A stretch of 64,000 nt of DNA from Candidatus Eiseniibacteriota bacterium (GTDB taxonomy: Bacteria; Eisenbacteria; RBG-16-71-46; CAIMUX01; VGJL01): contig JBHGAY010000025.1 in the NCBI GenBank assembly GCA_041946735.1, forward strand, positions 9,249-73,248, given 5' to 3'. Position 1 is the first letter of the stretch; each line of letters starts with the position of its first letter. Shown piece after piece: positions 5,975-48,274 of the stretch. Both the position numbers and the translations under genes were made by a program. Under the pieces are notes generated by a model, which ran no database searches, had not been told where the DNA came from, and saw nothing but the letters and a program-made list of their open reading frames with translations.

Positions 5975-7015
5975 TCACTCGAGCCGGATCAGCTTGCGCT
6001 GCACCGTCCCCTCGCTCGTCGTGAGCCGGGCGAAGAGGATTCCGGGACCGCCGGCCTCCGCGCCGCGCGCAGCATCGAAGCGCACCGTGTGTTCGCCGGG
6101 AGCGCGCGAGCCGTCGACGAACGTGGCGATTCTCCGTCCCTGGACGTCGAACAGCTCCAGCCGGATCGGATCGCGCGACGCGGCCGGCGAGACGGCGAAG
6201 ACGATCTCCGTCGAGACGCGGAAGGGGTTGGGTTGCGCGCCGAGAATCGCCGAGGCGAACGCCGTCACCGGCTCGCCGACGCCCATCGCCGGAGGCAGCT
6301 CCTGGAGGCGGGCGCCCTGCACGATCTCTAGATCCCCCTCGTGCTCCTGCAAGAAGGCGATCACCTTCAGATGGTCGCTGTGCCAGGACGGCTCCATCGT
6401 GACGTAGAAGTCGAAGACCACGTCGTCCCCCGGACCGGAGAAGGCGACGGGCCGCTCGACGATCTCGCGCGTGACGCGGTCGAGGAGGAATCCTTCCGAC
6501 CAGACGCTGTCCTCGAGAACGAAGAAGTAAGCGCGGGGATCATCGAACACCGCGGGATCGAGGAGGCGCAAGGTGGAATGCACGCGCACGCTCGCGTCTC
6601 CGATCTGATAGATCCCCTGGATCATGACGGGGCTCATCCCGCCCGTCTCGGCGATCCGCAGGTCGATCTTCTCCCCGAGCAGGGCCGCTGTGCCTTCACA
6701 GCCATCGATCCCTTGGTAGTAGCGGCTGCCGTCGATCCGCACGTAGGGCCACAGGTAGATGCCGTACCAGGCAGCGCGATGCTGCGCCTCCGGGATCGCG
6801 AGCGCATCGCACCAGTGCTCGTCGAACCAGAGAATGCGATCGCTTCCGTACGTCGCCTCGACCATCTGCAACCCGCACCGGGTGTCCCAGCAGGGAGGTC
6901 ACCCGAAGTAGTCGGCGAAGTGCTCGAGAACGAGAAGCTTCGGAACGCCCGCGGAGCAGAGCGAGATCGACAGCGCAGTCAGGACGGCCATGGAGACGAT
7001 GACCTTGCGGAGCAT
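5975..7015 (-). CDS. Secreted Omp28-related thioredoxin-like protein with FlgD/T9SS-like CTD; probable selenoprotein (UGA at codon 39, U-P-P-C)
   Basis: ATG 7015 with AAAGGGGGAG RBS; signal peptide MLRKVIVSMAVLTALSISLCSA; LVLEHFADYFG-TGA(6901-6899)-PPC continues in frame into ORF 5975..6871. Omp28-like VIAFLQ...EIVQGA; CTD QPNPF...LELFDVQGRRI...KLIRLE. Confidence 0.8.
6866..6893 (-). promoter_or_regulatory. Candidate bacterial SECIS hairpin
   Basis: Downstream of the UGA: CUGC...ACCC-GGUGC-GGGU-U-GCAG, with a G-led apical loop about 20 nt after the UGA. Confidence 0.55.
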
Positions 7016-7165
7016 CGCTCCCCCTTTCTGTCGTGTCGGGGCGGGGCGGAAGATGGAGTCCCCGCCGCTCGTCCACGGCGGGGAATATTCTCCTCTCTAC
7101 CGTCCAGAAGGGCAATCCGGACGGGAGGGGCGGGAAGGGCGGAAAGGGCGGAAAGGCCGGGGCGA

Positions 7166-7684
7166 TCAGGCCGGAGGCGCGTGCGGAGGGGCGAGCGCGG
7201 CGCGGCCCTCTTCGGCGTCGATCGGATCCTCGACATGGACGATCCCGCCTTCGAGGATCTCGGCGCGCAGACCGCCCCGATGGATGAGGCCTCGCAAGAC
7301 CTCTTTGCCGGTCATGCCGGCGAGATGGGCGCACGGCTCGCAGAGGCGGATCCCGCGGGCCCGGACCGCTCCGATCCGGAACTCGCGCCCCACCAGGTCA
7401 TTGAGCGCGATGCCGCGCGTCACGAGATTCCGGCGGCTTTCGCCGGCGCCGAGCGCGAAGCCGTAGTCGCGTGCAAGCGCCTCGATCGCCTCGGCCTCGA
7501 TCAGCGTCAACTCGTCCTCGGGACGGTGCGCTCCCGTGCCTGTCCGCACGCGGGCGAAATGCCGGTCCCCCTCGATCCCCGCCCCCGCCACGAGGCGCGC
7601 TTCGACGACCGGGTGAGGCGGCCCGCCCTGCTCGGCGATGATGTAGATCCCCTCGACCTGTCCTCTTCCCTTTCCTTGCTGCAT
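7166..7684 (-). CDS. MOSC domain protein
   Basis: GIEGDRHF, LTLIEAEAIE, RRNLVTRGIALNDLVG, RLCEPCAHL, RGGLRAEILEGG. Confidence 0.9.
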   Translation of the reverse strand: MQQGKGRGQVEGIYIIAEQGGPPHPVVEARLVAGAGIEGDRHFARVRTGTGAHRPEDELTLIEAEAIEALARDYGFALGAGESRRNLVTRGIALNDLVGREFRIGAVRARGIRLCEPCAHLAGMTGKEVLRGLIHRGGLRAEILEGGIVHVEDPIDAEEGRAALAPPHAPPA

Positions 7685-24326: not shown

Positions 24327-27300
24327 TCACCTCAGCAACACCAGCTTCTCCGTGCGGCTCGCGCTGCCCCCCTGCAGTCGGATCAAGTACACGCCCGAGC
24401 CGACGTCGCGGCCCTGGTCGTCTCGTCCGTCCCATACCTCTTCAGCCGCTCCGCCGGCGAACGAGCCCTGCCGAAGGATGCGCACGCGCCGTCCCTGCAG
24501 GTCGATGATCTCGAGCCGGAGCGAAGAGGCGCCCGGAGACTCGAAGCGGATTGCCGTCCTCGGATTGAAGGGATTCGGGATCGCGCCGATCAGCCGAAGC
24601 TCGAGCGCGCGAACGTTCACGTCGATCGTCGGACTGACCAGGATCTCGCGGTCGAAGCCGTCGAGACCGACGATGCGGTAGCTCTGCCGGCCCGGAGCGG
24701 CGGGATCGCGATACGAGTAGCTGCCATCCGATCCGAAGTCGCTCGCGACGCCCGAGGCGCGAAGCTCCCAGCCGCCCATCGCATCGCGGCGCTCGATCCG
24801 GAAGACCTCGACCGGCTCCTGGGTGCTCCAGATCAGCAGCGCCGCGCCTGCCTCTCCGGACGCCTCGGCCGCCAGCGTCCGGACCGGAGTGATCACCGCC
24901 GCGTCCTGCCTTCCCGTGTTGCGCGCGTCGTGGCGGAACGAGGGCCAGGGATTGGCCGCCATGGCCGCCGCCAGATCGGCCGGGAAGTTCACGTTGTCGA
25001 TATCGAGGATCGTCACCGCAGGCTGCTGCTCGGCCTGGATCAGGAGATTCGGGTGGCCGTCCCGGTCGACGTCCCAGGCGGCGAGCCCATGCTGGATGCG
25101 CCCGCCCGTGAAATACGGGAAGCCGATCATCATCGTGCCGTCGCCGTCCAGGGCGTAGACGACTCCTCCGTTGTCGCCGACGACGATCTCCGCCGCCAGG
25201 TCCGAATCGAGGTTCATCAGAATCGGAGAGCCGATCTTCGTGCTCGTGACAGGGGCTACCCGGACCGGGAACCCGGGGAGAACCGTCCCCTCCGTCGCGT
25301 CGATCGCGGTCACGCGCCCTTGCCCGACGCCGAGCGCGACGTCGAGGTCTCCGTCGCCGTCGATGTCCCCAAGAGCCGGCGTGGTCTCCGGCCATCGAGT
25401 CGGAAGCTGGTCGATCGGACGCTTGGGGAACTTCGCGATCAGCTGCTTCGAGCCCGGCTCATAGCCGAATCCCCAGAGATAGTTGCGCGTCGCCAGGTAG
25501 ATGTCGTACTGCAGGTCGTTGTCGACGTCGGCGATCGAGACCGAGCTGTTTTGCGCCTTGAAGTCCCCGACGAGGCCGCTCTCGAGCTGCTGGCTCGCTA
25601 GGACCGAGCCGTCGCCGTCGATGACATAGATGGCGGACGGACTCCCGGTCATATTCCGCTCGAGGCCGAGCACGATCTCTTCCCTGTCGTCTCCGTCCAG
25701 GTCGGCCACGGCCGGCGTCCCATAGGTCAGGGGCCAATCGTTCGGACCGGGCCACGTGCCCGGATCGGACGGGTTCCCGCTTCCGAGATAGACGAGCTTG
25801 CCGTCGCTATTGCTGCTCTTCACCGGCGTTCCGTCGTGATTCCACGCGAAGATGCATCCGCGGCTGTTCAAGACGATCTCGAACTGCGGATCGGAGTCGA
25901 TGTTCGCGATCACCGGCGAGGAGAGCATGTAGTTGCTGTACCCGGCGGCCTTCGACCACAACAACGTCCCGTCGTTGCGCCAGACGCGGATCTGCGCCGT
26001 CCCATGACCGCTGTCGTCGTAGCGCGAGACCGCGACGATCTCCATATTGCCGTCCCTGTCGATGTCCGCCACCGCCGGCTTGTTCCAGTAGGCGGGCACG
26101 CCCGGGGCCCAGATGCCGGGAGTAGAGACGACGTGATCGCCGTCCATCACCTCGAGACCATCCGCCTTCATCGCATAGACCGTCTGCCCCGCGATCACCA
26201 CTTCGAACGGGTTCCGCTCCCCTTCGCGGATCAAGTTCTCGACGGTCGGGCAGCCGAGCTGCGGCTCGACGATCGTGAAAGGCCACCCGGACAGCATGCC
26301 CGGGCTCGTCGTGGCTGCGACGACGTTCGAGAAGGCGCTCTGATTGCCGGACGAATCGACCGCCGCCACGCGGTAGTAGTAGCGCGAGAGGCCTGCCAGG
26401 CCGCCGTCGCGGTAGTACTCCATCCCGCGGACCAGGCCGGGCTGCGCCCTCTCGAAGTGGACCTGATCCTGCGAGCGTTCGAGCGCGTAGCCGTCCACGT
26501 CGCCTCCGGACGACTTGGTCCAGGTGAGCACGATCGCGTCCTTCGTCGCCTTCGGCTGCGCGGTGTCCGGGAAGCTCGGGGCCGATGGCGAGACGAAATC
26601 GACGGTCTTCGACAGGAACACGAAGGCGTCGTCCCGCTTCGAGCGCACCTCGAGCTTCATCTTCAGGATCGCCGCGTTCTGCACCTCGAACTGGAACGGA
26701 GGATTCGCGGTGACGAGGTCCCCCGCCTCGCCGTCGTCGACCGAGGAGGTGTCGTATCCGGCAACGATCGTCCCGCCCTGCACCGGCGTCAGAATCGCGC
26801 GCAGATCCCCCACGCTCCCGCTTCCGAGATCCCGCAGCACCGGGCGCCAGCTGATCCGCTCCCCGTTCTCCGGGATGCCGTCGCCGTCGCCGCTCACCTC
26901 CGAGCGCACGCTCCCCTCGACCCGGAAGACGGGTCTCAGGACGGGCAGCGCGAGACGGTAGGTGCGCGCCTGGCCGGCCTGCGGCGTGATCGTGATCCTC
27001 GCGACGAGCGGCACGCGGTCGCCGTTCTCGAGGAAGCTCTTCGGTACCGGCGAGGAGGAGCGGATCCGGAAGGCGGTGACCTGGTCGGTCGTGTTCGCCG
27101 CGACCGATCCCACATCCTCCGATGCGTCCTGGACCTCGAAGTACCCCGCCACTGATGGCGGCTCCAGCCCGAGGCTGAGGGTCAGAGGACCGGAGGCGCC
27201 GTTCCCGCCGTTGGCAAGCGAGACCCTCAAGCCGACCGTTTCCCCCTGATCGAAGACGCCGTCGCCGTTGCCCGCCGTCTGTCCTCCGGGCGAATCGTCG

Positions 27301-29531
27301 ATCGCGAGGGCGGTCGCAGCGACCGCCTCGCCCGACGGCTTCTCGACGTTGCGGGAGAAGGTGCCGGGGATCGACGTGAATCCGGTGGCGGTCACGATGA
27401 AGTTGCCGGTCGACGTCGCCTGGAACGGGACGACCGCCTGTCCATTGGCGTTCGTCGTCGCGATCGCGTAGGTGTCGTTCGGCTTGTACGCGCAGACCTG
27501 GACGTCCGGCACCCCCTGTCCGTTCCTGCGGACGTTGATCGTCAAGGAGGACTCGCCGAGCGTGTAACTGGTCTGCTGCGCGCTGACCTCGAGAGGCTTC
27601 GGCGTTCCGAGCCACATATGGATCTGAGGGTCCCCGAGCAGGATCAGGCTGTAGCTCAGGAAGCGCCGGTAGCTGTCGAAGCCGGTGTTGCCGGCCATCT
27701 GCTCCGCGATCGTGTGATAGTAGGCGTCGCCCAGATATGGCGCCTTGTCGTGGAAGATCTTTGTGTAGGTCGACTCCATGAAGCCGGTCGCGGCGGCAGG
27801 AAAGTCGAGGTTCGTGGAGCCGATGTAGCAGATGACTCCCCCGTTCTCGGCGAAGAGCAGCGCCTCGGCGACGCAGTCGTAGTCGATCGCCGCGGAGTTG
27901 CAGTTGATCGAGTAGAGCACGCCGATCTTGTCGCCGTTCGTGACGGCGCGCGCATCCGACGTCAGGAGGCGGCCCGCTCCGTCGAAGCCGTCGATCGTCC
28001 CGATCGACATGCGGTCTCGATCCCCATGGCCGACGTGGTGGATCAGCCCCATCCCTTCGTTGATCTTGTCGATGACCGACGACTTCGTCTCGGGTTGCGC
28101 GTTCGGGCGGCCGTTCTGGCGCCAGTACTCATACCACTCGTACAGCTCGACCTTCTCCAGAGGCGGCACGCGGCCCTCGTCGATCGCCTGGTCGATGATC
28201 CCGATCGTCCGGACCGCGTCCCCGGCGCCGTCGAGAGAGACGCAGGTGTCGCAGCCGCTCCCGCACGCCCCACAGCGGGGAAGGAGCGACCGCTTCCATT
28301 CCGCGTCGAAGAGCACCTCGCCGAGGAACAGCACTCGATCGAGATACCCCTGTGTATTGGGGCTCTTGATGTAGGTGTTGACGTACTTCTGCAGGAACTG
28401 CAGGAGCTGCGTCGCGTCGGAGGCCGGGATGCGGCCGACATACAGCTCCGCGTCGAAGTCGACGTCGTCCCCGATCGGATTCGGCGGATTCGAGCCTCGG
28501 ACCGGCTCTCCGAAGACCGCGTCGCCGTCGGCATTCCAGTTGCCGTCGAGGCAGGCGTAGTAGAGGTCGGTGATGATGTCGACACCGGCCGGGACATTCC
28601 ACGAGTAGGACTTCGCGAGCCGCATCGGAACCTGGGCCGGTCCGCCGGCGATCAGCACGTACTGGACTCCCCAGTACTGGTAGGCGGCCTGCAGGAAGTG
28701 ACGGATCCTCTCCTGGTCATCGACTCCGTTGGGATAGTTCTCCCGGATCCACTCGACCGTCCGGATGACGGTCGGAGTGCCGGACTGGTTCTTCCAGTCG
28801 GCGAGGAGCTGCACGGAGGGGGCCAGGGCCTCGGTCGTGATGATCAGGTACTCGACCGGCGCGCTCGACAGCGCCGGGAGATCGCTGACCGCCTCGCGGA
28901 GCGCCTGGCTTCTTCCTTCCCCCTGGAAGTCCCGGCGCCAGAGGTCCTCCGCGCCCGATCGCAGGACCTTCAGTGGACGCGGCGCGGTCGCGTCGCCCTC
29001 CAGATGGACGATCAGCCGGCCCGACTCGAGCAGGGACAGCTGTGCCCCCTCCTCGATGGCGACGACCGGGTAGACGGCGAAGTGGGCGAAGACCTGCCCG
29101 CGCCGCATGGAGGTCGACAGGTAGCGGACACGCGAGGCGGGATAGGAGCCGGAGGCGTACGCGTCGTCCCGCAGGGCGACCTGTCGCGGGCCCCCGTCGG
29201 GCGTCGGAGCGTCCTGGAGCGCCGTCGCGAGGATCCCCTGGGCCGGGCGCTCCGACGTCGAGGCGCCCGCCAGCTCCCAGGAGGCGACCTTCGTGCCGTC
29301 AGGGATCGGCACCCGCACCAGATGGGCCGGGAGGTCCGGCTCCCCGGGCTCCGCCAGATGGAGGAGGGCGTCACTCACGGTGCATTCGATCTCCCCGCTC
29401 GCGTCGGAGACGAGGGAGACCTGACCCCAGGACCAACCGAGGAGGACGTCCTCGGGGTCGGCCGCGCTCGCGGCCGCGGGGACGACCAGGGCAAGGAGCG
29501 GGATCAGCCAGAGAGCGTGTCGAGCGCGCAT
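24327..29531 (-). CDS. Large secreted C25 (gingipain-family) cysteine peptidase with propeptide, Ig/FN3 domains, FG-GAP repeats and FlgD/T9SS-like CTD
   Basis: ATG 29531 after GGAGG; signal peptide; EPGEPDLP propeptide; EYLIIT, TDLYYACLDGNWNADGD, VGRIP, HVGHG and SINC catalytic His/Cys, LLGDP; ADIDRDG/ADLDGD repeats; IPNPFNP...WDGRDDQGRDVGSGVYLIRL...KLVLLR. Confidence 0.9.
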   Translation of the reverse strand: MRARHALWLIPLLALVVPAAASAADPEDVLLGWSWGQVSLVSDASGEIECTVSDALLHLAEPGEPDLPAHLVRVPIPDGTKVASWELAGASTSERPAQGILATALQDAPTPDGGPRQVALRDDAYASGSYPASRVRYLSTSMRRGQVFAHFAVYPVVAIEEGAQLSLLESGRLIVHLEGDATAPRPLKVLRSGAEDLWRRDFQGEGRSQALREAVSDLPALSSAPVEYLIITTEALAPSVQLLADWKNQSGTPTVIRTVEWIRENYPNGVDDQERIRHFLQAAYQYWGVQYVLIAGGPAQVPMRLAKSYSWNVPAGVDIITDLYYACLDGNWNADGDAVFGEPVRGSNPPNPIGDDVDFDAELYVGRIPASDATQLLQFLQKYVNTYIKSPNTQGYLDRVLFLGEVLFDAEWKRSLLPRCGACGSGCDTCVSLDGAGDAVRTIGIIDQAIDEGRVPPLEKVELYEWYEYWRQNGRPNAQPETKSSVIDKINEGMGLIHHVGHGDRDRMSIGTIDGFDGAGRLLTSDARAVTNGDKIGVLYSINCNSAAIDYDCVAEALLFAENGGVICYIGSTNLDFPAAATGFMESTYTKIFHDKAPYLGDAYYHTIAEQMAGNTGFDSYRRFLSYSLILLGDPQIHMWLGTPKPLEVSAQQTSYTLGESSLTINVRRNGQGVPDVQVCAYKPNDTYAIATTNANGQAVVPFQATSTGNFIVTATGFTSIPGTFSRNVEKPSGEAVAATALAIDDSPGGQTAGNGDGVFDQGETVGLRVSLANGGNGASGPLTLSLGLEPPSVAGYFEVQDASEDVGSVAANTTDQVTAFRIRSSSPVPKSFLENGDRVPLVARITITPQAGQARTYRLALPVLRPVFRVEGSVRSEVSGDGDGIPENGERISWRPVLRDLGSGSVGDLRAILTPVQGGTIVAGYDTSSVDDGEAGDLVTANPPFQFEVQNAAILKMKLEVRSKRDDAFVFLSKTVDFVSPSAPSFPDTAQPKATKDAIVLTWTKSSGGDVDGYALERSQDQVHFERAQPGLVRGMEYYRDGGLAGLSRYYYRVAAVDSSGNQSAFSNVVAATTSPGMLSGWPFTIVEPQLGCPTVENLIREGERNPFEVVIAGQTVYAMKADGLEVMDGDHVVSTPGIWAPGVPAYWNKPAVADIDRDGNMEIVAVSRYDDSGHGTAQIRVWRNDGTLLWSKAAGYSNYMLSSPVIANIDSDPQFEIVLNSRGCIFAWNHDGTPVKSSNSDGKLVYLGSGNPSDPGTWPGPNDWPLTYGTPAVADLDGDDREEIVLGLERNMTGSPSAIYVIDGDGSVLASQQLESGLVGDFKAQNSSVSIADVDNDLQYDIYLATRNYLWGFGYEPGSKQLIAKFPKRPIDQLPTRWPETTPALGDIDGDGDLDVALGVGQGRVTAIDATEGTVLPGFPVRVAPVTSTKIGSPILMNLDSDLAAEIVVGDNGGVVYALDGDGTMMIGFPYFTGGRIQHGLAAWDVDRDGHPNLLIQAEQQPAVTILDIDNVNFPADLAAAMAANPWPSFRHDARNTGRQDAAVITPVRTLAAEASGEAGAALLIWSTQEPVEVFRIERRDAMGGWELRASGVASDFGSDGSYSYRDPAAPGRQSYRIVGLDGFDREILVSPTIDVNVRALELRLIGAIPNPFNPRTAIRFESPGASSLRLEIIDLQGRRVRILRQGSFAGGAAEEVWDGRDDQGRDVGSGVYLIRLQGGSASRTEKLVLLR

Positions 29532-29873
29532 CAGACCTCCTCGATGCCGATCCGCGACCGCTTCGGCGGGGCGGGCGGCCGGACGGAAACGCCGGAAATG
29601 CTGGAAAACCGCGGCCCGTGCGGCGCGGGACCGCGCGAACGGACTCGTGGGACCAAAGATGGGCATTTCACTCTGCGGCGGAGTCTAGCGGTGGCCCGAT
29701 GAGCAGTCAACGCGGCCGGCGCTGGTCGCGCGTCCCCTCGGGGCTCTGCGAGGTGCATTTTTCGCGGCTTTCGTGAAGAATCCTGTTGCCTGACTCTCGA
29801 AATGGGTGCTAGAGAAGGTGCGGCCTCGATCAGACGAGACCGAAGAAACGCGTACCAAGGAGGGATGGAAGCC

Positions 29874-41255: not shown

Positions 41256-42221
41256 ATGGATGGGCAGGACTGGCTCACGGCCCGCTTCGAAGAGAACCGG
41301 GATCATCTGCAGCGCGTCGCCTACCGGATGCTCGGATCCGCCGCGGAGGCGCAGGACGCGGTCCAGGAGGCGTGGCTGCGTTTGAGCCGCGCCGGGACGG
41401 GCGACGTCCGCAATCTGTCCGGATGGCTCACGACCGTCGTTGCCCGGGTCTGCCTCGACATGCTGCGCCGCCGGAGATCCCGTCGCGAGGAGCCGTTCGA
41501 CCCGCTCGACCCGCGCGCCGGCAAGCCGTCTGTTGCGGGCGCGGAGAGCGGCACGGCGGCGCGGCGGCCGGATCAAGAAGCGCTTCTTGCCGACTCGATC
41601 GGCATCGCGCTCCTCGTCGTCCTCGAGAGGCTGACTCCCGCGGAGCGTGTCGCGTTCGTGCTGCACGATCTTTTCGATCTCCCCTTCGACGAGGTCGGCC
41701 CGATCATCGACCGTACGCCCGCAGCTGCTCGACAGCTCGCCAGCCGGGCACGCCGCCGGGTGCAGGGGATCGACCAGGATTCCGCCGTCAACGCGATGCC
41801 AGACCGCGATCGACAGCGGACGGTGGTGGAGGCCTTTCTCGAGGCTTCCCGCGAGGGTGACTTCGGTCGGCTGCTCTCGCTGCTGGATCCCGGCGTGGTC
41901 GTCAGAGCGGACGGCGCCGCCGTGCGGATGGGAGCCCCCGAGATCGTTCGCGGCGCGCCAGCCGTGGCGAAGACGTTCGCCGGCCGTGCTCGCGCCGCTC
42001 AGCCAGCGCTCGTCGACGGTATGGCAGGTCTGGTGTGGGCCGTCGGCGGCACGCCGCGCGTGGTCTTCCGGTTCGTGACGGCAGGCGGACAGGTATTGGC
42101 GATCGAGATGCTGGCTGATTTGCGAACTCTGCAGAATCTCGACCTCGTGATGCTCCGCGGTGCTCGTGACAGCGAAAAGAACGGGGAAACCCAACGCCCG
42201 CGGTCCACCGGAAAGGAGTAG
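41256..42221 (+). CDS. ECF sigma factor, ECF41/SigJ type with SnoaL-like C-terminal extension
   Basis: AYRMLGS..EAQDAVQEAWLR, WLTTVVARVCLDMLR, LERLTPAERVAFVLHD, RQLASRARRRV, ADG, RGA..VA. Confidence 0.92.
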   Translation: MDGQDWLTARFEENRDHLQRVAYRMLGSAAEAQDAVQEAWLRLSRAGTGDVRNLSGWLTTVVARVCLDMLRRRRSRREEPFDPLDPRAGKPSVAGAESGTAARRPDQEALLADSIGIALLVVLERLTPAERVAFVLHDLFDLPFDEVGPIIDRTPAAARQLASRARRRVQGIDQDSAVNAMPDRDRQRTVVEAFLEASREGDFGRLLSLLDPGVVVRADGAAVRMGAPEIVRGAPAVAKTFAGRARAAQPALVDGMAGLVWAVGGTPRVVFRFVTAGGQVLAIEMLADLRTLQNLDLVMLRGARDSEKNGETQRPRSTGKE

Positions 42222-42380
42222 AGTTTTGCCGCTCGAAAGGGAGGCACATTCGTTGGCGCGCCGCCAAGACCTGTTTCGCGACAGACGCGACGCTGCGTCT
42301 CGCGCAGTCGCGAAGGGCGTTCACTGGACTCGCGTCTCGACGAACGAGAAGGCGGGGGCAGCACGAGTGGTGACATTCCA

Positions 42381-42803
42381 GTGAACGATATTCCAGCGAA
42401 CATTCAGATGAACTCGATCGGCGTCGTGCGATCGCGGCTCACGGCGAAGGCGGACGCGCCGCGACAGGGATCGGAGGGCGCTCCGGAGGCCTGGATCGAT
42501 ATCGACCCGCTCTATTCGGATGCGATCGCCGGGATCGTGAGCGGCGATTGGATCCTGCTCCTCACCTGGCTGCACCTCGGCGACCGATCCGTCCTGAAGA
42601 CCCGCCCGCGCGACGATCCGGAGAAGCCGCTCATTGGCGTCTTCGCCACGCGCTCACCCGACCGGCCGAACCCGATTGGTCTGCATCGCGTGCGCGTTCT
42701 GGAGGTCGCGCCCCCGGCGCGCCTGCGCGTCCATCCCCTCGAGGCGATCGACGGAACGCTGATCCTGGATATCAAGCCGGTCCTTCACGAGAACGAGCAA
42801 TAG
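42381..42803 (+). CDS. tsaA: tRNA N6-methyltransferase TrmO/TsaA
   Basis: IGVVRS, APRQG, GVFATRSPDRPNPIGL, LEAIDGT.ILDIKP. Confidence 0.9.
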   Translation: MNDIPANIQMNSIGVVRSRLTAKADAPRQGSEGAPEAWIDIDPLYSDAIAGIVSGDWILLLTWLHLGDRSVLKTRPRDDPEKPLIGVFATRSPDRPNPIGLHRVRVLEVAPPARLRVHPLEAIDGTLILDIKPVLHENEQ

Positions 42804-43008
42804 ACCGACTGGGGACGGATGGAGAGGTGGGGCGCCGCGTGGCGCCCGAGCTGCGGCCGCCGCGGTCGTCGGCCGCGAGTCAACGCCTTCGACCGGGGAC
42901 GACAGCGGATCATCAAGTCGAAACGCCATGACAAGCCCAATCGACTACTGCGTCTCCGCTCGGTTCATCGCGGGTGATAGAGTCGGTCGGTCGGTCAGGA
43001 GGTAGCCG

Positions 43009-43128
43009 ATGTGGAAAGAAATGCTCACAGTCCGGGCCCGGTGGAAACATCAGCCGACACATTTCGAGGGTGACCGGTGTCGCATGCGCTTCCTCATCGC
43101 TGCACAACCCCAATCCTACTTTTCCTAG
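43009..43128 (+). CDS. Candidate small ORF (39 aa)
   Basis: AGGAGGT RBS then MWKEMLTVRARWKHQPTHFEGDRCRMRFLIAAQPQSYFS-TAG; below the ORF-track size cutoff. Confidence 0.35.
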   Translation: MWKEMLTVRARWKHQPTHFEGDRCRMRFLIAAQPQSYFS

Positions 43129-43337
43129 CGGCTTAACCCTTCGGAGTACCTCAACGCAGGCCCCTGGACTGCTGCCAAGTCGGAACCTGCCGATACATGG
43201 GAGGGGGAGAACCGGCTCCGTCTTTCGAAAGTTTCTTGACCACCTCCCCCGCGTGCATCTACCCTCGCTACACGAGAAAGGGGCATCGTGCAGCGGAGCA
43301 ATGGCTGACCCTTCCACCCCCTAAAGGGAGGCCGCCA

Positions 43338-43679
43338 ATGAAGCCGATCCGCTCGAGCGCTAAAGCTTGCCGCTGGGGACTGTTCACCATCCTGATGGTA
43401 ATTGTCCTCATCTGCGGTGCTTTGCCGTCGGCTAACCCCTCCGAGTGCCTGGCAAAGATTCAGCCGATTTCCATGGCGCCTGTGCATGACGGTGACGGCG
43501 ACGAATGGCCCGAAAAGACTGAACCCCCCGCACCGGATTTCGATCTGTCCCGAAACCCGGAACCGACTGAAGTCCCTAACGATTTCTCCGTGAAAGGCAT
43601 GCGCAACTCCAATCACCCCGCACCACTACCTGTGGTGGCTCTAATCCGTCTCCTCATCTTCCGGTCGGTCTTCGGTTGA
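43338..43679 (+). CDS. Small exported protein / peptide precursor (113 aa)
   Basis: GGAGG RBS; N-terminal hydrophobic segment; acidic HDGDGDEW motif; Pro-rich linker; amphipathic C-terminus; stop 2 nt before the regulator ATG. Confidence 0.7.
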   Translation: MKPIRSSAKACRWGLFTILMVIVLICGALPSANPSECLAKIQPISMAPVHDGDGDEWPEKTEPPAPDFDLSRNPEPTEVPNDFSVKGMRNSNHPAPLPVVALIRLLIFRSVFG

Positions 43680-43681
43680 CC

Positions 43682-45976
43682 ATGGATCCAGGATCGACAA
43701 GCAGGATCCACAAAGCCGCGAGGTGGCTCTCACTGGCTCGTGTGTACCTTGAGACCGGAGCGTACGCACAAGCGGAACTTCACGCTCGGAGAGCCCTTTC
43801 CGAAACGGACGACGGATACGTCGTCTTCGAATCGATGCTCGTGCTCGTGGACGCCCTTCGCAGACAGGGGAAGACCGCGGAAGCAGTCACGGTGCGATCC
43901 GAGATTGCGGACCCGGCTGACCCCGTGCTCCAGGCCGAGCTCCGGGTGCTTGATAGCAGGCTGCTGATTGACGCTGGCGACTACCATAAGTGCATCGAGG
44001 AGTTCGGTCGTTTCGCTTTTGGTTCGACATCGTCGGTCTCGGAGATCTGGCTGCAAACGAATCTCGCAGAATGCATGACCCGCCTAGGCAAACTCGAGGA
44101 AGCGAGGGCGGTGTTCCGCCATGTTGTCCTTGAGTCGGAACGGAATGGATGGAAGGAGGGTGTAGCCAGGACCGAAATGTGCCTGGGGCTTCTCGCCAAT
44201 AGAGACCGGAATTGGCCTGAGGCCTTACAGCACCTTAACGCATCGAAAGAGCTCTATGCCCATTTGGGGCTGATGAAGAACTACATGGCGTGCCTTCTGA
44301 ACATAGGCCTCATTCACCTCTTGCGGGGGGACTTTACTCGTGCCTGCGACGAACTCGGACAGGCCGTCCGAATAGCTAGCGCGATGCACGATCTGCCAAT
44401 AGAGGTGACCGGGCGATCTGACCTGGGGCTCGCCTTAGTGAGATCCAACCGACTCGGGAGCGCTCGCGAGGAGTTGTCTCGTGCGCTCCGTCTCTCCCGT
44501 CGACAGCCCTCCCCGCGGCGCCTCGCGATCGCGCTGGAGTACACCGGCGAGTACCACATAGCAGCGAAGCAGTACAAGCATGCTGGACGTTTGCTCCAGA
44601 AAGCCCTTGAAATAGGCAACCGGATTGCGCCTGGCGGCGACATCGTCCCCGAAGTCCTGCGTAGGCTTGCAGAAGTCGCCCTCTACGAGAAGCGCTACGA
44701 GGACGCCGCGCGAATCGCTGGGGAGGCGGAGCAGAAGGCTCATGCGAACCGGGATCGCTATGAACTGGCCACGATCCTCCGAGTGAAAGGCCAGATCGCG
44801 GACACGACGGGGAGCAAGAAAGAAGCGACGACCTACTGGCGGGAGGCACTAGCTATCCTCAAAGAACTCGACGAGACGTTCGAGCACGGCAGAGTTCTCA
44901 AGCTGCTCGGCATGAAGCAGCCGGGAAGCGGTCCATCCTCCCACAAGCCGTCCGGTAGCGACTTCCGTGGGACTACCCGGGAGGAGCTGGTCGCGCTCTT
45001 GCGTGCGAATGGAATGATCGGAAGCTCCCCGGCGATGGTCGAGGTGATGCGCCAAGCGCGTCTCTTGGCGCCCACGGACCTCACGCTTCTCGTTCAGGGA
45101 GAAACGGGTACGGGGAAGGAGCTGCTCGCCCAGGCTCTCCACAAACTCTCCGATTTCAGCGGAAGATTCGTGGCGTTCAACTGCGGGACTTGCCCACCTC
45201 ACCTCCTGGACGCCGAGCTGTTCGGTCATACGCGCGGAGCATTCACCGGCGCGCGGACGAGCCGGCGCGGCCTCGTTCGCACCGCGGAAGGCGGGACGCT
45301 CTTCCTCGACGAGATTGGGGAGCTTCCCGCGGAATCCCAGGCACGCCTGCTACGTCTCATGGATTCTGGAGAGATTCGGCCGCTGGGCTCCGATGAGGTG
45401 ATGAAGGTACTGGTACGGATCATTGCGGCGACGCACGTCGATCTCGCTGAGCTCGTCATTGAGGGCCGCTTCCGGCCGGATCTCTTCTTCCGCCTCTCAA
45501 ACATCCGGTTGGTGATGCCGCCGCTGAGAAGACGCGGCGCTGACATTCGGGAACTCATCGAGCATTTCGTCGAAGAAGCGCGGCGTTCGAACCGGCCGAG
45601 TTTCCCGGGATTCAGCAAGCCGGTGATCGACGAGTTGCGGCGCTATTCCTGGCCGGGCAATGTTCGTCAGCTTCGGATGGAGATCCTGCGACTCGCCACG
45701 CTCTACGAGGGCGAGGAACCCATGGAGACCTGGCCGAGGCAAGATCAGGATCGGGATGCTCGAGTGATTCCGCCCATGCAGGCAAAAGGCATCCTCGCCG
45801 ATCCCGACCGACTCCGCACTCTCATCAGGGACTGCGATGGCGAGATCCAGATGGTCGCGCGAAAACTGGGAGTATCTCGCACGGGTCTTTACCGGATCTT
45901 CAAGCGCGTAGGTATCGATTCGCGGAAAATTCGATCGGAGATCGACGAGTACCGGGACAGAAACTGGCTGATCTGA
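43682..45976 (+). CDS. TPR-repeat sigma-54-dependent enhancer-binding protein (TPR-AAA+-HTH)
   Basis: About 410 aa of TPR-like helices; GETGTGKE, LFGHTRGAFTGA, GGTLFLDEIGE, RIIAATH, FRPDLFFRL, WPGNVRQL; Fis-type HTH VARKLGVSRTGLYR. Confidence 0.93.
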   Translation: MDPGSTSRIHKAARWLSLARVYLETGAYAQAELHARRALSETDDGYVVFESMLVLVDALRRQGKTAEAVTVRSEIADPADPVLQAELRVLDSRLLIDAGDYHKCIEEFGRFAFGSTSSVSEIWLQTNLAECMTRLGKLEEARAVFRHVVLESERNGWKEGVARTEMCLGLLANRDRNWPEALQHLNASKELYAHLGLMKNYMACLLNIGLIHLLRGDFTRACDELGQAVRIASAMHDLPIEVTGRSDLGLALVRSNRLGSAREELSRALRLSRRQPSPRRLAIALEYTGEYHIAAKQYKHAGRLLQKALEIGNRIAPGGDIVPEVLRRLAEVALYEKRYEDAARIAGEAEQKAHANRDRYELATILRVKGQIADTTGSKKEATTYWREALAILKELDETFEHGRVLKLLGMKQPGSGPSSHKPSGSDFRGTTREELVALLRANGMIGSSPAMVEVMRQARLLAPTDLTLLVQGETGTGKELLAQALHKLSDFSGRFVAFNCGTCPPHLLDAELFGHTRGAFTGARTSRRGLVRTAEGGTLFLDEIGELPAESQARLLRLMDSGEIRPLGSDEVMKVLVRIIAATHVDLAELVIEGRFRPDLFFRLSNIRLVMPPLRRRGADIRELIEHFVEEARRSNRPSFPGFSKPVIDELRRYSWPGNVRQLRMEILRLATLYEGEEPMETWPRQDQDRDARVIPPMQAKGILADPDRLRTLIRDCDGEIQMVARKLGVSRTGLYRIFKRVGIDSRKIRSEIDEYRDRNWLI

Positions 45977-46022
45977 ATTCGCCGGCTCATCGACACCTAG
46001 CCGGCCGGTTTGCTCGCCTCTT

Positions 46023-46062
46023 CGATCCGACGATCCGACGATCCGACGATCAGACGATCAGA
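46023..46062 (+). repeat. 8-nt tandem repeat (CGATC[C/A]GA)x5
   Basis: cgatccga x3 then cgatcaga x2; the last copy contains the Eis gene stop codon. Confidence 0.9.
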
Positions 46063-47299
46063 AGGCGTCTCTCATCCAAGGCTCCGGTCCCGCAAAGATC
46101 CGTGTCGCGTCCCGGAGCGCCTCATCCCCCGCCTCGATCCAGCCGAGGTCTCGAAGCTGTCGCGGTGCGAGAAGACCGCTGAAGAGCGGCGCCATTCCCC
46201 GAATCGTGGCTCGCAGGTCTCCTCTCCCGCCGCTCACCACCGTCCCTGTGCCGTCCACCACTCGCAGAATCCACCGCCCCATGTTCGCCGGGATGACCTC
46301 GTCGTCGACGTCGAGGTGCAGTTCCGCCTCGAGGCCGGGGGGATACCCGCGCATTTCGAGAGCATTCGGAAGGTCGACGATGCGAAGGAGCCAGCGCTCC
46401 CCGCGCCCCGACCGGTACACCTGCTCTTCGGGCAAGCAGAGAAGCGGTTCCACTTCCGCGCCGTGCCAGGTGATCTCGCGCGCAAGCGACCGGTGATCGG
46501 CAAGGAAGGACATCATCCGCCGATACGCGCTCGGCGATAGTGCCGCCCAGTCACGCACCCGCATGTCATAGCCGGACGTCCCCGGCGACTGCGTGAAGAT
46601 GATGTATCCGTCGGGGCTGGCTTCCGAGCCGATCCGGTAGGCATGGACGGCTTCGCCTTCCCACGATCGCAGGAGCCTCTGCCACAGTCCGGGGCAGCGG
46701 TCGAGATTCCCGTTCGTCCGCTCCGCCTGCAGACGCGCCATCGCCGCGAAATTCTCGGGTGCAGGCTTCACCGGCTCCATTCGGATCGAGCGATCCCACT
46801 TCCCCCAGAACCCGGTCAGCGGCATGGTGTGCTCGGCACGGTTTCCCGCCTGCTCATAGCCGACCGACCGATACAGATGTTGCGTGGAGGCATACAGCGC
46901 GGACAGAGGGTGCCCGTGCGCGTGCAGATCCTCGAGCACACCGATCATGAGCGCGCGTGCCGCCCCGGTCGCCCGTTCCTCCGGCGGCACGCCGACGGCG
47001 GCGATGCCCCCCATCGGGACTCTCCGGCCGCCGAAGTACTGGCCCATCCACAGAACCGCCAGACCCGCAACCATGCGCCCCTCGGTCCAAAGCGTCCGTA
47101 GGTTTGCCTTGCCGACCAGATCGGACCATGGCTTCCACCGGGCGAGCGGGAAGGCGAAGCATTGCGTGAGGATCTCGCGGAGGCGCTCCTCTTCGACGGA
47201 CTCGACATCAGGATCGGCAAGCGGTCGGTACTCAAAAGAGGGATCCACAAGGCTCAAGGCCGGACTCCTTGGTTGATTCTGTTCGGGGCGATTCCCCAT
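46058..47299 (-). CDS. Eis-family GNAT acetyltransferase
   Basis: QYFGGRRVPMGGIAAVGVPPEER, SALYAS...YRSVGYE, LLRIVDL..AL..RGY, C-terminal SCP2-like end PWMRDAF. Start approximate. Confidence 0.9.
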   Translation of the reverse strand: MGNRPEQNQPRSPALSLVDPSFEYRPLADPDVESVEEERLREILTQCFAFPLARWKPWSDLVGKANLRTLWTEGRMVAGLAVLWMGQYFGGRRVPMGGIAAVGVPPEERATGAARALMIGVLEDLHAHGHPLSALYASTQHLYRSVGYEQAGNRAEHTMPLTGFWGKWDRSIRMEPVKPAPENFAAMARLQAERTNGNLDRCPGLWQRLLRSWEGEAVHAYRIGSEASPDGYIIFTQSPGTSGYDMRVRDWAALSPSAYRRMMSFLADHRSLAREITWHGAEVEPLLCLPEEQVYRSGRGERWLLRIVDLPNALEMRGYPPGLEAELHLDVDDEVIPANMGRWILRVVDGTGTVVSGGRGDLRATIRGMAPLFSGLLAPRQLRDLGWIEAGDEALRDATRIFAGPEPWMRDAF

Positions 47300-47401
47300 G
47301 AGGTTCCGTTGGCCGCATCGGCCCGCTACGGCCGTCTTGGACCCGCGCGCGACGGCCGTCACAGACCCCCGCGCGACGGCGATCTTAGCCCGCGCGGCGC
47401 G

Positions 47402-48274
47402 CTAGCGGTAGGTCGCCCTGATTGCACCCCAACTTCGGATCTCCACGGCCACCGGAACGCACTCGTTGGGCATACAGTCGCTCCACGCGCCCTGCGGCAC
47501 ACCTCCCGAAGCGACGCATTCCATCTCGACCAGCTCCATGCAGCTCCCGTCCGCGAAGCAGCAGGCGAAGACCGGCGTGTTCGGGCAAGGATTGGGCTCA
47601 CACAGCGTCCCCGGACCTTCCCACGTCCACGAACCACCCGCCGCGTAGCACTCCAAGTAGCTCACGGCCCGGCAGACGCCGTCGAGAAAGCAGCACGCCC
47701 CGGGGACCGTTTCGCACCGATCCGGCTCGCACGCATGACCGTCGATCACACCGCCGTCGTTCAAGCATTCCTCGGGTAGCAGGTAGAGTTCGCACGAGCC
47801 GTCCTCGAAGCAGCAACCGACGAGCGAGCAGGAGCAGGGATTCGGGTCGCAGGGGACTCCCTCGGACCACGAGCAGTAGTCCGGGCGCGCCAGGCACTCC
47901 ACCTCCGTCTCGACGAAGCACTCGCCGGCGTCGAAACAGCAGGCGCCTTGCGGCGACGCGCAGAGATTCGGCTCGCAGAGGTTCTCCGCGGGAGCGCCAC
48001 CCAAGTCGTAACAATCCTCGCCGCAGTAGAAGACGCGGCAGGATCCATCCGGAAAGCAGCAGCCGACCGGCTGCGGGCACGGGTTGGGGTCTCAGTCGGC
48101 TCCAGGGTAGAAGGCGCAACCGCCGGTCGCCCAGCAATCCGCCTCCTCTACCATTTGGCACGATCCGTCCGGGTAACAGCAGATGCCCACCTCGGCCTTC
48201 GCAACACCGGCAACGGCACCGGCCAGCACGATGGCCGACACGACAGCGACACCGACGATCGTCACTCGATACAT
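47402..48274 (-). CDS. Secreted Cys-rich repeat protein (six GxCC..DGxC repeats) with in-frame UGA at codon 61 and C-terminal SWG motif
   Basis: ORFs 48092..48274 and 47402..48004 share a frame, joined by TGA(48094-48092)-DPNPCPQPVGCCFPDGSC. The TGA sits at the Cys of the C[DE]PNxC repeat motif. Ends PVAVEIRSWGAIRATYR. Confidence 0.75.
48059..48074 (-). promoter_or_regulatory. Candidate SECIS hairpin
   Basis: GCAGCC-GGUC-GGCUGC; stem starts 17 nt after the UGA; GGUC loop resembles the E. coli fdhF SECIS loop. Confidence 0.45.

Follow-up and report, generated by a model that had tools for sequence, protein, structure and literature searches.

Does a small protein that carries an export signal control the transcription activator encoded immediately behind it? 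The question is raised by two adjoining genes on the forward strand of a 64,000-nucleotide (nt) stretch from a Candidatus Eiseniibacteriota bacterium (contig JBHGAY010000025.1), the whole of which we refer to as the window. The first gene (43338..43679, running from ATG 43338 to the stop codon TGA at 43677-43679) is an open reading frame (ORF) of 113 amino acids (aa), whose product founds a new family of proteins predicted to be exported. The second (43676..45976) encodes a sigma-54 activator whose input part is an array of tetratricopeptide repeats (TPRs), with 766 aa if translation starts at TTG 43676 or 764 aa if it starts at ATG 43682. Comparison of related loci indicates that the small ORF and the activator gene are a conserved two-gene unit beyond chance. 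Much of this layout had been described in a first-pass annotation of the window: the 113-aa frame with its signal-like N-terminus, HDGDGDEW motif and Pro-rich linker is present in full at 43338-43679, and the distance of 2 nt that it gave between the small ORF and a 764-aa activator holds for the ATG start, the TTG start giving 766 aa and an overlap.

A conserved pair of genes

The TPR part of the activator has a handful of orthologues at 43–48% identity. We scanned species-representative genomes with an alignment of the TPR part only, since generic AAA+ motifs would otherwise have driven the search, and 119 pattern matches led to seven confirmed loci, all of them in metagenome-assembled genomes: L001, L002 to L006 from Candidatus Eisenbacteria, and L007 from Gemmatimonadota. 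In 7/7 of these loci a co-oriented ORF of 107–124 aa ends 2–50 nt 5' of the TPR protein; in the window, the gap is -4 or 2 nt, depending on the start chosen for the activator. The seven upstream ORFs display a common order of parts: a basic N-terminus and a hydrophobic core lead to a small-x-small site, behind which lie a Gly/acid motif, an acidic stretch rich in Pro and Ser, and a C-terminus that is hydrophobic and basic. The first-pass annotation had suggested looking for a small exported ORF with a GDxD-type motif beside homologues of the activator; by architecture such an ORF is present in all seven loci, and a motif of the [DE]G-x-x-x-[DE] type is found in six, L007 being without it. The condition that the annotation had named as refuting its proposal, regulators whose neighbourhood holds no such ORF, was thus not borne out. 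No other neighbour is conserved around the pair across the seven loci, where the remaining neighbours all differ.

As a control, we applied a crude automatic filter, which detected a small upstream ORF before six of the eight activators (those of the related loci and of the window) and before one of 109 other gene calls. The two activators that it missed are artefacts, due to a wrongly called gene start in L004 and, in L005, to a hydrophobic run of 10 residues, one short of 11. The sole control gene pair that passed, at 6559-7290 (-) of L003, consists of a 137-aa membrane protein directly 5' of a 73-aa HTH_3 (Xre-type) regulator, and may be another small-protein/regulator pair.

The adjacency extends to loci whose TPR arrays have diverged to 24–26% identity. 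Pairwise identities across loci range from 17 to 32% for the small proteins and from 24 to 52% for the TPR arrays. When distances among the small proteins were compared with those among the TPR arrays in a Mantel test, r was 0.78 and 37 of 5000 permutations reached this value; since one close pair, L004/L005, drives the result, it is uninformative on co-evolution.

That same close pair is instructive in another respect. In the TPR proteins of L004 (8404-10530) and L005 (8404-10593), the AAA+ domain is degenerate, and the Walker A lysine, the GAFTGA loop, the Walker B glutamate and the helix-turn-helix (HTH) are missing. The TPR array and the small ORF in front of it are nevertheless present at both loci and under purifying selection. 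Since the TPR array and the small ORF thus survive the loss of AAA+ functions, the conserved partnership is that of the small protein with the TPR array, and not with the sigma-54 machinery. The L004 and L005 proteins may act as pseudo-ATPase receptors, or they may inhibit other activators. When the two loci were compared, the ratio of non-synonymous to synonymous substitution rates (dN/dS) was ~0.16 for the small ORF, a value similar to those of its neighbours (TPR protein, 0.09; gene upstream, 0.12), with dS near saturation in all three. Judged by this comparison of L004 with L005, the small ORF is a real gene under constraint. A different kind of damage was observed in L006 (8005-10406), where a frameshift near 9876 leaves the activator in two ORFs, one of 624 aa and one of 176 aa that holds the lid and the HTH; the gene may be a pseudogene, or the assembly may be in error here.

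The composition of the window also bears on the small ORF as a gene. A Shine-Dalgarno sequence, GGGAGG (43326..43331, +), read directly from the DNA, lies 6 nt 5' of ATG 43338. The GC contents at the first, second and third codon positions (GC1/2/3) of the 113-aa frame are 0.60/0.47/0.66, which is coding-like and resembles the 0.66/0.45/0.71 of the activator; this coding-type pattern was not seen in the other ORFs of the 534-bp spacer 5' of the small ORF. A start at the equivalent MK... is common to all small-ORF homologues and agrees with the 113-aa start. A longer reading of 160 aa from ATG 43197 is unlikely, its 47 added codons having a GC2 higher than their GC3 (0.66 versus 0.62). The pair and its 534-bp upstream spacer lie in a stretch of lower GC (0.61–0.62 at 42001-46000, versus 0.66–0.73 in the rest of the window), and GC3 of the small ORF (0.66) and of the activator (0.71) is exceeded in the flanking genes (0.78–0.82); foreign origin or low expression could account for the low values of the pair.

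Architecture of the two proteins

We built a profile from eight small proteins and searched it against 1.84 billion representative proteins at E<=1e-3. This yielded a family of 21 members, seven of which were the input loci and 14 of which were new, with no fused forms. Lengths range from 107 to 132 aa, except in two gene calls of greater length (162 and 181 aa). No Pfam family was matched by the window protein and no NCBIfam family by five members, and a search against PDB sequences gave 0 chains at E<=10. An Atlas look-alike search pointed, with values of 0.76–0.78, to unnamed clusters of ~110 aa, mostly from Candidatus Eiseniibacteriota, which serve as leads only; every structural row had a TM <=0.40. 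The AlphaFold2 model of the window protein, of low confidence (pLDDT 66.8), comprises a helix at 7-27, an unstructured region at 28-97 and a helix at 98-112.

The N-terminal 39 residues (43338..43454, +) are predicted, by manual reading, to be a signal peptide, with a basic n-region, a hydrophobic core and the sequence P-x-x-x-x-x-C-L-A before K40. The core is 17 residues long; residues 13-32 are uncharged, and the model has its first helix at 7-27. In the aligned homologues, also read by eye, a basic n-region is followed by a hydrophobic core of 15–20 residues and a small-x-small (AxA-type) site before K/R; the recurrent predicted signal-peptidase site can be written as P-x(4-5)-[ASGCT]-x-[AG] before K or R, followed by (K/R)-x-P-P-P. 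The small protein thus has the features of a Sec-exported protein cleaved by signal peptidase, as predicted by eye from its sequence.

Conservation is concentrated at this site and just behind it. The conserved segment is formed by the first ~25 mature residues, beginning with (K/R)-x-P-P... and continuing with DGGGDEW-P-E...PP, and its acidic, Gly-rich motif, DGDGDEW in the window (aa 51-57; 43488..43508, +; preceded by H50), is the best conserved part of the family. In the alignment of 21 sequences, D51 and G52 are the only invariant or near-invariant columns of the mature region. The motif starts between residues 46 and 51 in 19/21 members and at residue 39 in one, and is absent from L007, where only SDGGW is found in its place and homology is uncertain. 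It reads DGGGDEW or DGGGDEF in L001 to L003, DGTP(Y/F)EEPE in L004 and L005, and GGDGGDD in L006. The D-x-D-x-D spacing that would be expected of an EF-hand is not maintained among the homologues, and we rejected this reading of DGDGDEW.

Behind the motif, the window protein has an acidic, Pro-rich linker that is disordered in the model, and in 19 of the 21 members the segment that follows the hydrophobic core and precedes the last 18 residues is net acidic. The chain closes with a predicted hydrophobic, basic helix (aa 98-112; 43629..43673, +), whose character is kept and whose sequence is not: the last 18 residues have a positive mean hydropathy in 15/21 members and a net charge of at least +1 in 17/21, and no conserved column was found within the last 20 residues of the 21 aligned sequences. 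The first-pass annotation had called this C-terminus amphipathic and basic. It is indeed basic, and it is hydrophobic rather than cleanly amphipathic, with a hydrophobic moment (muH) of 0.11 in the window protein. A C-terminal transmembrane segment or sortase-type anchor was rejected as well, given a hydrophobic run of just 11–14 residues with internal Arg, Gln or Lys, and no match to an NCBIfam sorting signal. The alternative offered by the annotation, a membrane-tethered anti-activator, lost ground in consequence of a C-terminal segment that is too short and polar to span the membrane and of a predicted signal-peptidase site, of the canonical small-x-small form, in all members. Other C-termini were observed in a few proteins: in P0027, P0031 and P0034, from different sub-lineages, DGGGDEW is followed by N-D-M and then by unrelated, non-hydrophobic C-termini, and in P0030 the residues behind DGGGDEW-PNE form a polar C-terminus. 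The cause could be a frameshift in the gene calls, or the proteins could represent a genuine alternative form.

The activator begins with a TPR superhelix of 21 helices (aa 5-410 in the 766-aa numbering; 43688..44905, +), modelled by AlphaFold2 with a pLDDT of 92.0 and a pTM of 0.84. Pfam matched TPR_12 (1e-20) and TPR_2 (5e-17), with TPR_MalT below threshold, over about residues 14-360. The public gene call for this protein (P0002, 713 aa) uses an internal Met and starts 51–53 codons late (43676-43834); we consider the longer start better because the omitted N-terminal 50 residues, which hold a TPR helix, align with the orthologues. The sigma-54 interaction AAA+ domain (residues 445-610; 45014..45511, +; PF00158 Sigma54_activat, E 1e-60) contains a Walker A motif, GETGTGKE, at 473, a Walker B motif, LFLDE, at 540, and a GAFTGA loop at residues 519-524 (45236-45253, +), which is intact, in agreement with the first-pass annotation. 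It is followed by an AAA+ lid (616-679; 45527..45718, +; PF25601 AAA_lid_14, 6e-15) and by a weak match to a Fis-type HTH (715-738; 45824..45895, +; PF02954 HTH_8, E 1.3e-3, 18.9 bits against a cut-off of 22), a sub-threshold segment that is conserved in the orthologues. The loop of the orthologues reads GAFTGA, GAYTGA or GSFTNA, and there is none in L004 and L005. No REC, GAF or PAS domain was found by Pfam at E<=0.01, so that the TPR array is, as had been claimed, the sole input module. In NCBIfam only the AAA+ part matched and no named equivalog reached its cut-off, the best being NorR with 263 bits against 476. By its AAA+ features, the sequence is that of a bona fide bacterial enhancer-binding protein (bEBP). 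Like NtrC, NifA, NorR and PspF with PspA, it has an AAA+ domain bearing Walker A and B motifs, GAFTGA and a lid; its C-terminus gives the sub-threshold match to a Fis-type HTH, and in relatives a -24/-12 promoter lies beside the gene. Unlike these bEBPs, it has a TPR input and not REC, GAF, PAS, V4R or a separate inhibitor. A full-text search of openly accessible literature found no paper on TPR-input bEBPs as a class, and a term search of the main text of Francke et al. 2011 (PMC3162934) found no 'TPR', 'tetratricopeptide' or 'domain architecture'.

The activator is cytoplasmic, and its array is modelled as a superhelix of ~10 repeats, of the kind that holds long extended peptides within its inner channel. 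When the TPR model was compared to solved structures with Foldseek, the best matches were the TPRs of LGN/Pins, with E about 1e-9 and a TM by query of up to 0.56; the TPRs of O-GlcNAc transferase (OGT) and subunits of the BBSome and of APC/C ranked after them, and no RRNPP receptor (Rap, NprR, PlcR, PrgX, AimR) was among the matches listed, ranks 1-50. A PDB sequence search with the TPR domain returned generic TPR proteins only. LGN/Pins (PDB 3sf4, 5a7d, 6hc2, 4wnd) resembles the activator in having a TPR_12-type superhelix, which encloses a long extended peptide (Inscuteable, NuMA, Frmpd). It differs in being a eukaryotic polarity protein with 14–19% identity and no AAA+ or DNA-binding domain, and the likeness is one of repeat architecture only. 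In the small proteins, the glycine run is followed by E-(W/E)-P-E. An acidic E-P-E motif is a feature of LGN ligands, for which a literature search gave no usable paper.

Transcription, candidate sigma-54 output and surroundings

A candidate sigma-70-type promoter, TTGACC-18 nt-TACCCT, was identified at 43236..43265 (+) by a four-way alignment only: a block TTGA(C/T)N-17/18 nt-TA(T/C)nnT aligns about 70–100 nt 5' of the small ORF in the window, L001, L002 and L003. A stricter consensus scan of 42700-46200 gave 0 sigma-70 sites and 0 terminators. Autoregulation through sigma-54 was considered and rejected, as no -24/-12 element above 8/11 was found 5' of the small ORF in eight upstream regions. 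With a sigma-70-like block aligned and no -24/-12 element in front, the pair therefore looks constitutively transcribed, and to judge from the sequence the two genes are probably co-transcribed from this candidate housekeeping-type promoter.

At the junction, TTG 43676 overlaps the stop codon of the small ORF as TTGA, and ATG 43682 follows 2 nt after it. The activator has no Shine-Dalgarno sequence of its own in the window and in L002; several other loci, with gaps of 12–50 nt, have one. Translational coupling is thus probable in the window, where the activator start overlaps or abuts the stop and lacks a Shine-Dalgarno sequence. Folding of the junction RNA of eight loci gave no shared hairpin over the activator start.

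We scanned all loci and the window for -24/-12 promoters with TGGCAC-N5-TTGCW, keeping GG and GC fixed and requiring 10/11 positions. Five sites reached 10/11, and four of them lie on the activator strand, 78–298 nt past the activator stop, in L002, L003, L006 and L007; by a rough estimate, the downstream zone that holds these four is about 1% of the searched sequence. No site was found behind the TPR gene in L004 and L005, whose AAA+ domain is degenerate, and the contig of L001 ends 52 nt past the gene. In L002 (10898-11744) and L003 (10810-11709), a Shine-Dalgarno sequence and the start of a 77-aa secreted protein lie 65–68 nt beyond the near-consensus -24/-12 element. This protein has six conserved cysteines, in the pattern HCxDLLDGDCDxP..C..LCF.EL...C..P.DP.C, and the next gene encodes a secreted protein of 176–207 aa. 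Neither protein matched a family, and tblastn found no copy of them in the window. Which genes the L006 and L007 promoters drive is uncertain; they may be those for a cytochrome c lipoprotein and for a beta-helix protein that ends in a type IX-type C-terminal domain.

In the window itself, the activator is convergent with an Eis-like GNAT gene (46058-47362, -). A tandem repeat of CGATCCGA (x4.6; 46023-46059) lies between the two convergent genes, and a second one (24-nt unit, x3.1; 47324-47396) at the 5' end of the GNAT gene, beside a gene for a Cys-rich protein. Two genes past the pair and on the opposite strand, 47402-48004 (-) and 48092-48274 (-) encode Cys-rich, apparently secreted proteins of 200 and 60 aa with repeated CC(F/Y)xDGSC units, which match no Pfam or NCBIfam family and have no -24/-12 element in front. 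Farther away, 24327-29666 (-) encodes a 1779-aa protein with a Peptidase_C25 (gingipain-type) domain, FG-GAP repeats and a C-terminal FlgD_ig domain; FlgD_ig is also the last domain of secreted proteins in L002 and L007, a finding that points to a type IX-like secretion tag in these organisms. An Rfam scan of the whole window identified two tRNAs elsewhere and nothing near the pair.

How the small protein may act on the activator

The arrangement recalls the RRNPP systems (Rap/Phr, NprR/NprX, PlcR/PapR, PrgX, AimR/AimP), where a cytoplasmic TPR receptor likewise adjoins the gene for an exported-type precursor and the two genes travel as a unit. The published five-point RRNPP signature (PMC10075063) comprises a propeptide of 10–100 aa, a Sec signal, a receptor of ~250–500 aa, TPRs, and genes that are neighbours at -60 to 400 bp. 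The window pair agrees with points 2, 4 and 5 (a Sec-type precursor, by eye only; a TPR receptor; adjacency) and departs from the two that concern size, with a propeptide of 113 aa and a receptor of 764 aa, ~410 aa of which are the TPR part. It is also unlike RRNPP in that the output of the receptor is a sigma-54 AAA+ engine and not an HTH or phosphatase protein, and in that the hosts are Candidatus Eisenbacteria or Gemmatimonadota and not Firmicutes, with a motif conserved across genera. By its own account, the RRNPP_detector study covered Firmicutes and viruses only. By analogy, then, the pair may work like an RRNPP pair in its logic, without being a member of that family.

Control of the activator by the small protein through direct contact, be it after re-uptake or by binding before export, stands in our view about evenly between being right and being wrong. 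The more specific proposal, that the pair is a self-contained signal/receptor cassette in which a cognate exported signal is read by the TPR activator after re-uptake, is the likeliest of the readings considered here, though well short of probable. In such a cassette, the acidic N-terminal segment would be freed, after export, from the disordered linker and the membrane-seeking C-terminal helix; it would then re-enter the cell and bind inside the TPR superhelix. Occupancy of the TPR array would alter the restraint that it places on the AAA+ domain, so that an active ring could assemble and open a sigma-54 promoter, which in four relatives would be the one directly behind the activator gene. 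We favour the route through re-uptake because conservation of the small protein is highest at the signal-peptidase site and the mature N-terminus. The cassette as such is supported by the adjacency in 7/7 loci and the control count, by the fixed position of the motif and the selection on the small ORF, by the TPR array as sole input and its likeness to peptide-binding LGN/Pins TPRs, by the persistence of array and small ORF in L004 and L005, and by the -24/-12 sites behind four activators. A prediction of the complex between TPR residues 1-440 and residues 41-113 of the mature small protein, made with alignments and without controls, gave ipSAE values of 0.02 and 0.01 and counts neither way.

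Several points weigh against signalling through re-uptake. The motif is constant across very divergent receptors, whereas the pherotype peptides of RRNPP systems diverge fast; the precursors, at 107–132 aa, exceed known propeptides in size; and the conserved part is N-terminal in the mature chain, where RRNPP peptides are usually C-terminal. The host phylum is probably two-membraned, and a peptide acting between such cells would have to cross the outer membrane on its way out and again on its way in. Around the pair, the related loci share no conserved gene for a peptide permease or a processing protease. On the side of the output, the window has no -24/-12 site at 10/11 and no intergenic site at 9/11 near the pair, and rpoN is absent from the proteins scanned, which were those of the window only. 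The related loci were found through two TPR peptide patterns, and sampling is accordingly limited to activators bearing them. Finally, binding, processing and uptake of the small protein are steps that we infer.

We regard as rather unlikely the view that the two proteins make no direct contact, the small protein being a co-expressed envelope protein, its ORF a coupling leader, and another protein the one sensed by the TPR array. The small protein would then be tethered to the membrane surface by its C-terminal helix, with the acidic motif carried on a flexible stalk. Its predicted compartment is indeed different from that of the activator, the small proteins diverge faster than the TPR array, and in the window and L002, where the activator lacks a Shine-Dalgarno sequence, its translation may depend on the small ORF. 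Coupling is not a universal constraint, however, since several loci have their own activator Shine-Dalgarno sequence and gaps of 12–50 nt, and the adjacency is strict at a TPR identity of about 25%, despite full turnover of the other neighbours, and is kept even beside the degenerate proteins of L004 and L005.

A partner switch coupled to secretion is, in our estimate, unlikely too. The TPR array would bind the small protein before export, through the acidic motif or the C-terminal helix, the bound activator being held either inactive or active, and Sec export would relieve this state, so that the output would follow the flux of export or signal its failure. Analogues of such a switch are FlgM/sigma-28 and, in type III secretion, the TPR chaperone/co-activator pairs. 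An arrangement in which the small gene comes first, and is coupled or tightly spaced to the second, is what one would expect if a single mRNA were to yield a stoichiometric complex, and a chaperone-like relation between TPR array and client fits the persistence of the pair in L004 and L005 after the transcription functions were lost. The topology problem of a cytoplasmic sensor with an exported ligand would be removed, and the clear driven genes, those of L002 and L003, encode secreted proteins; in L006 and L007, the closest plausible ORFs past the promoter likewise encode exported proteins, with the uncertainty of assignment given above. Against this, we know of no example for Sec substrates and bEBPs, the switch leaves unexplained why the best conserved segment begins exactly at the mature N-terminus, and the binding on which it depends is itself a predicted step.

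Improbable, by comparison, is an arrest peptide of the SecM/MifM/VemP type, on which the ribosome would stall at the C-terminal segment of W, R and hydrophobic residues until pulled by Sec, and which would control translation of the activator. Like SecM, MifM, VemP and the upstream-ORF families of Fujiwara et al. 2024 (PMC10987492), the small ORF is an upstream ORF with an export signal, a spacer and a distinctive C-terminus. It agrees with three of the four search criteria published there: it has an N-terminal localisation signal; its spacer exceeds 30 aa, about 58 residues separating the signal-like segment (1-39) from the C-terminal helix in the window protein; and it is a small upstream ORF of unknown function directly before a regulated gene. 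Moreover, its distinctive segment forms the very end of the chain, no farther from the stop codon than the length of the ribosomal tunnel, and total length is held narrowly, at 107–132 aa, though the linker varies. Contrary to criterion (i) of the same study, the gene downstream encodes a TPR transcription activator and not sec or yidC. The C-terminal sequence varies even among close relatives, only its character being kept, and forms no conserved arrest motif; no shared hairpin sequesters a Shine-Dalgarno sequence or hides the activator start, which lies 2–50 nt away; and the strongest conservation is in the N-terminal motif, for which the arrest model has no need.

The reading of the small ORF as a chance open frame in GC-rich DNA, where spurious ORFs abound and where a word-index protein search with the small protein matched only the window's own copy, retains next to no probability and is refuted by the strong Shine-Dalgarno site in front of it, its coding-like GC at the three codon positions, the motif common to 21 homologues, its position in 7/7 related loci and its dN/dS of ~0.16 in L004/L005.

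In sum, the genomic pattern is robust and the family of small proteins is new; the mechanism by which the two act together is one that we infer. To our knowledge, intracellular TPR receptors that go with genetically encoded exported peptides have been described only from Firmicutes and the mobile elements of these. For sigma-54 activators, the known switches are phosphorylation, small molecules and separate inhibitor proteins. We suggest only tentatively that the pair described here is the first peptide-sensing sigma-54 activator, an RRNPP-like circuit for cell-cell or self-sensing, built on a DGGGDEW peptide in an uncultured, probably two-membraned phylum, with a relative in Gemmatimonadota, and independent in origin of the Firmicute systems. 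The cassette is compact, consisting of two genes and, in relatives, one adjacent promoter, and is directly testable in a heterologous host. Even with a peptide that acts as a partner before export or as a monitor of secretion, the cassette would tie small-protein export to an AAA+ transcription switch, a connection undescribed so far. If peptide sensing is true, it would represent a new input class for sigma-54 control, and would open a first way into the signalling of a phylum that only metagenomes have revealed.

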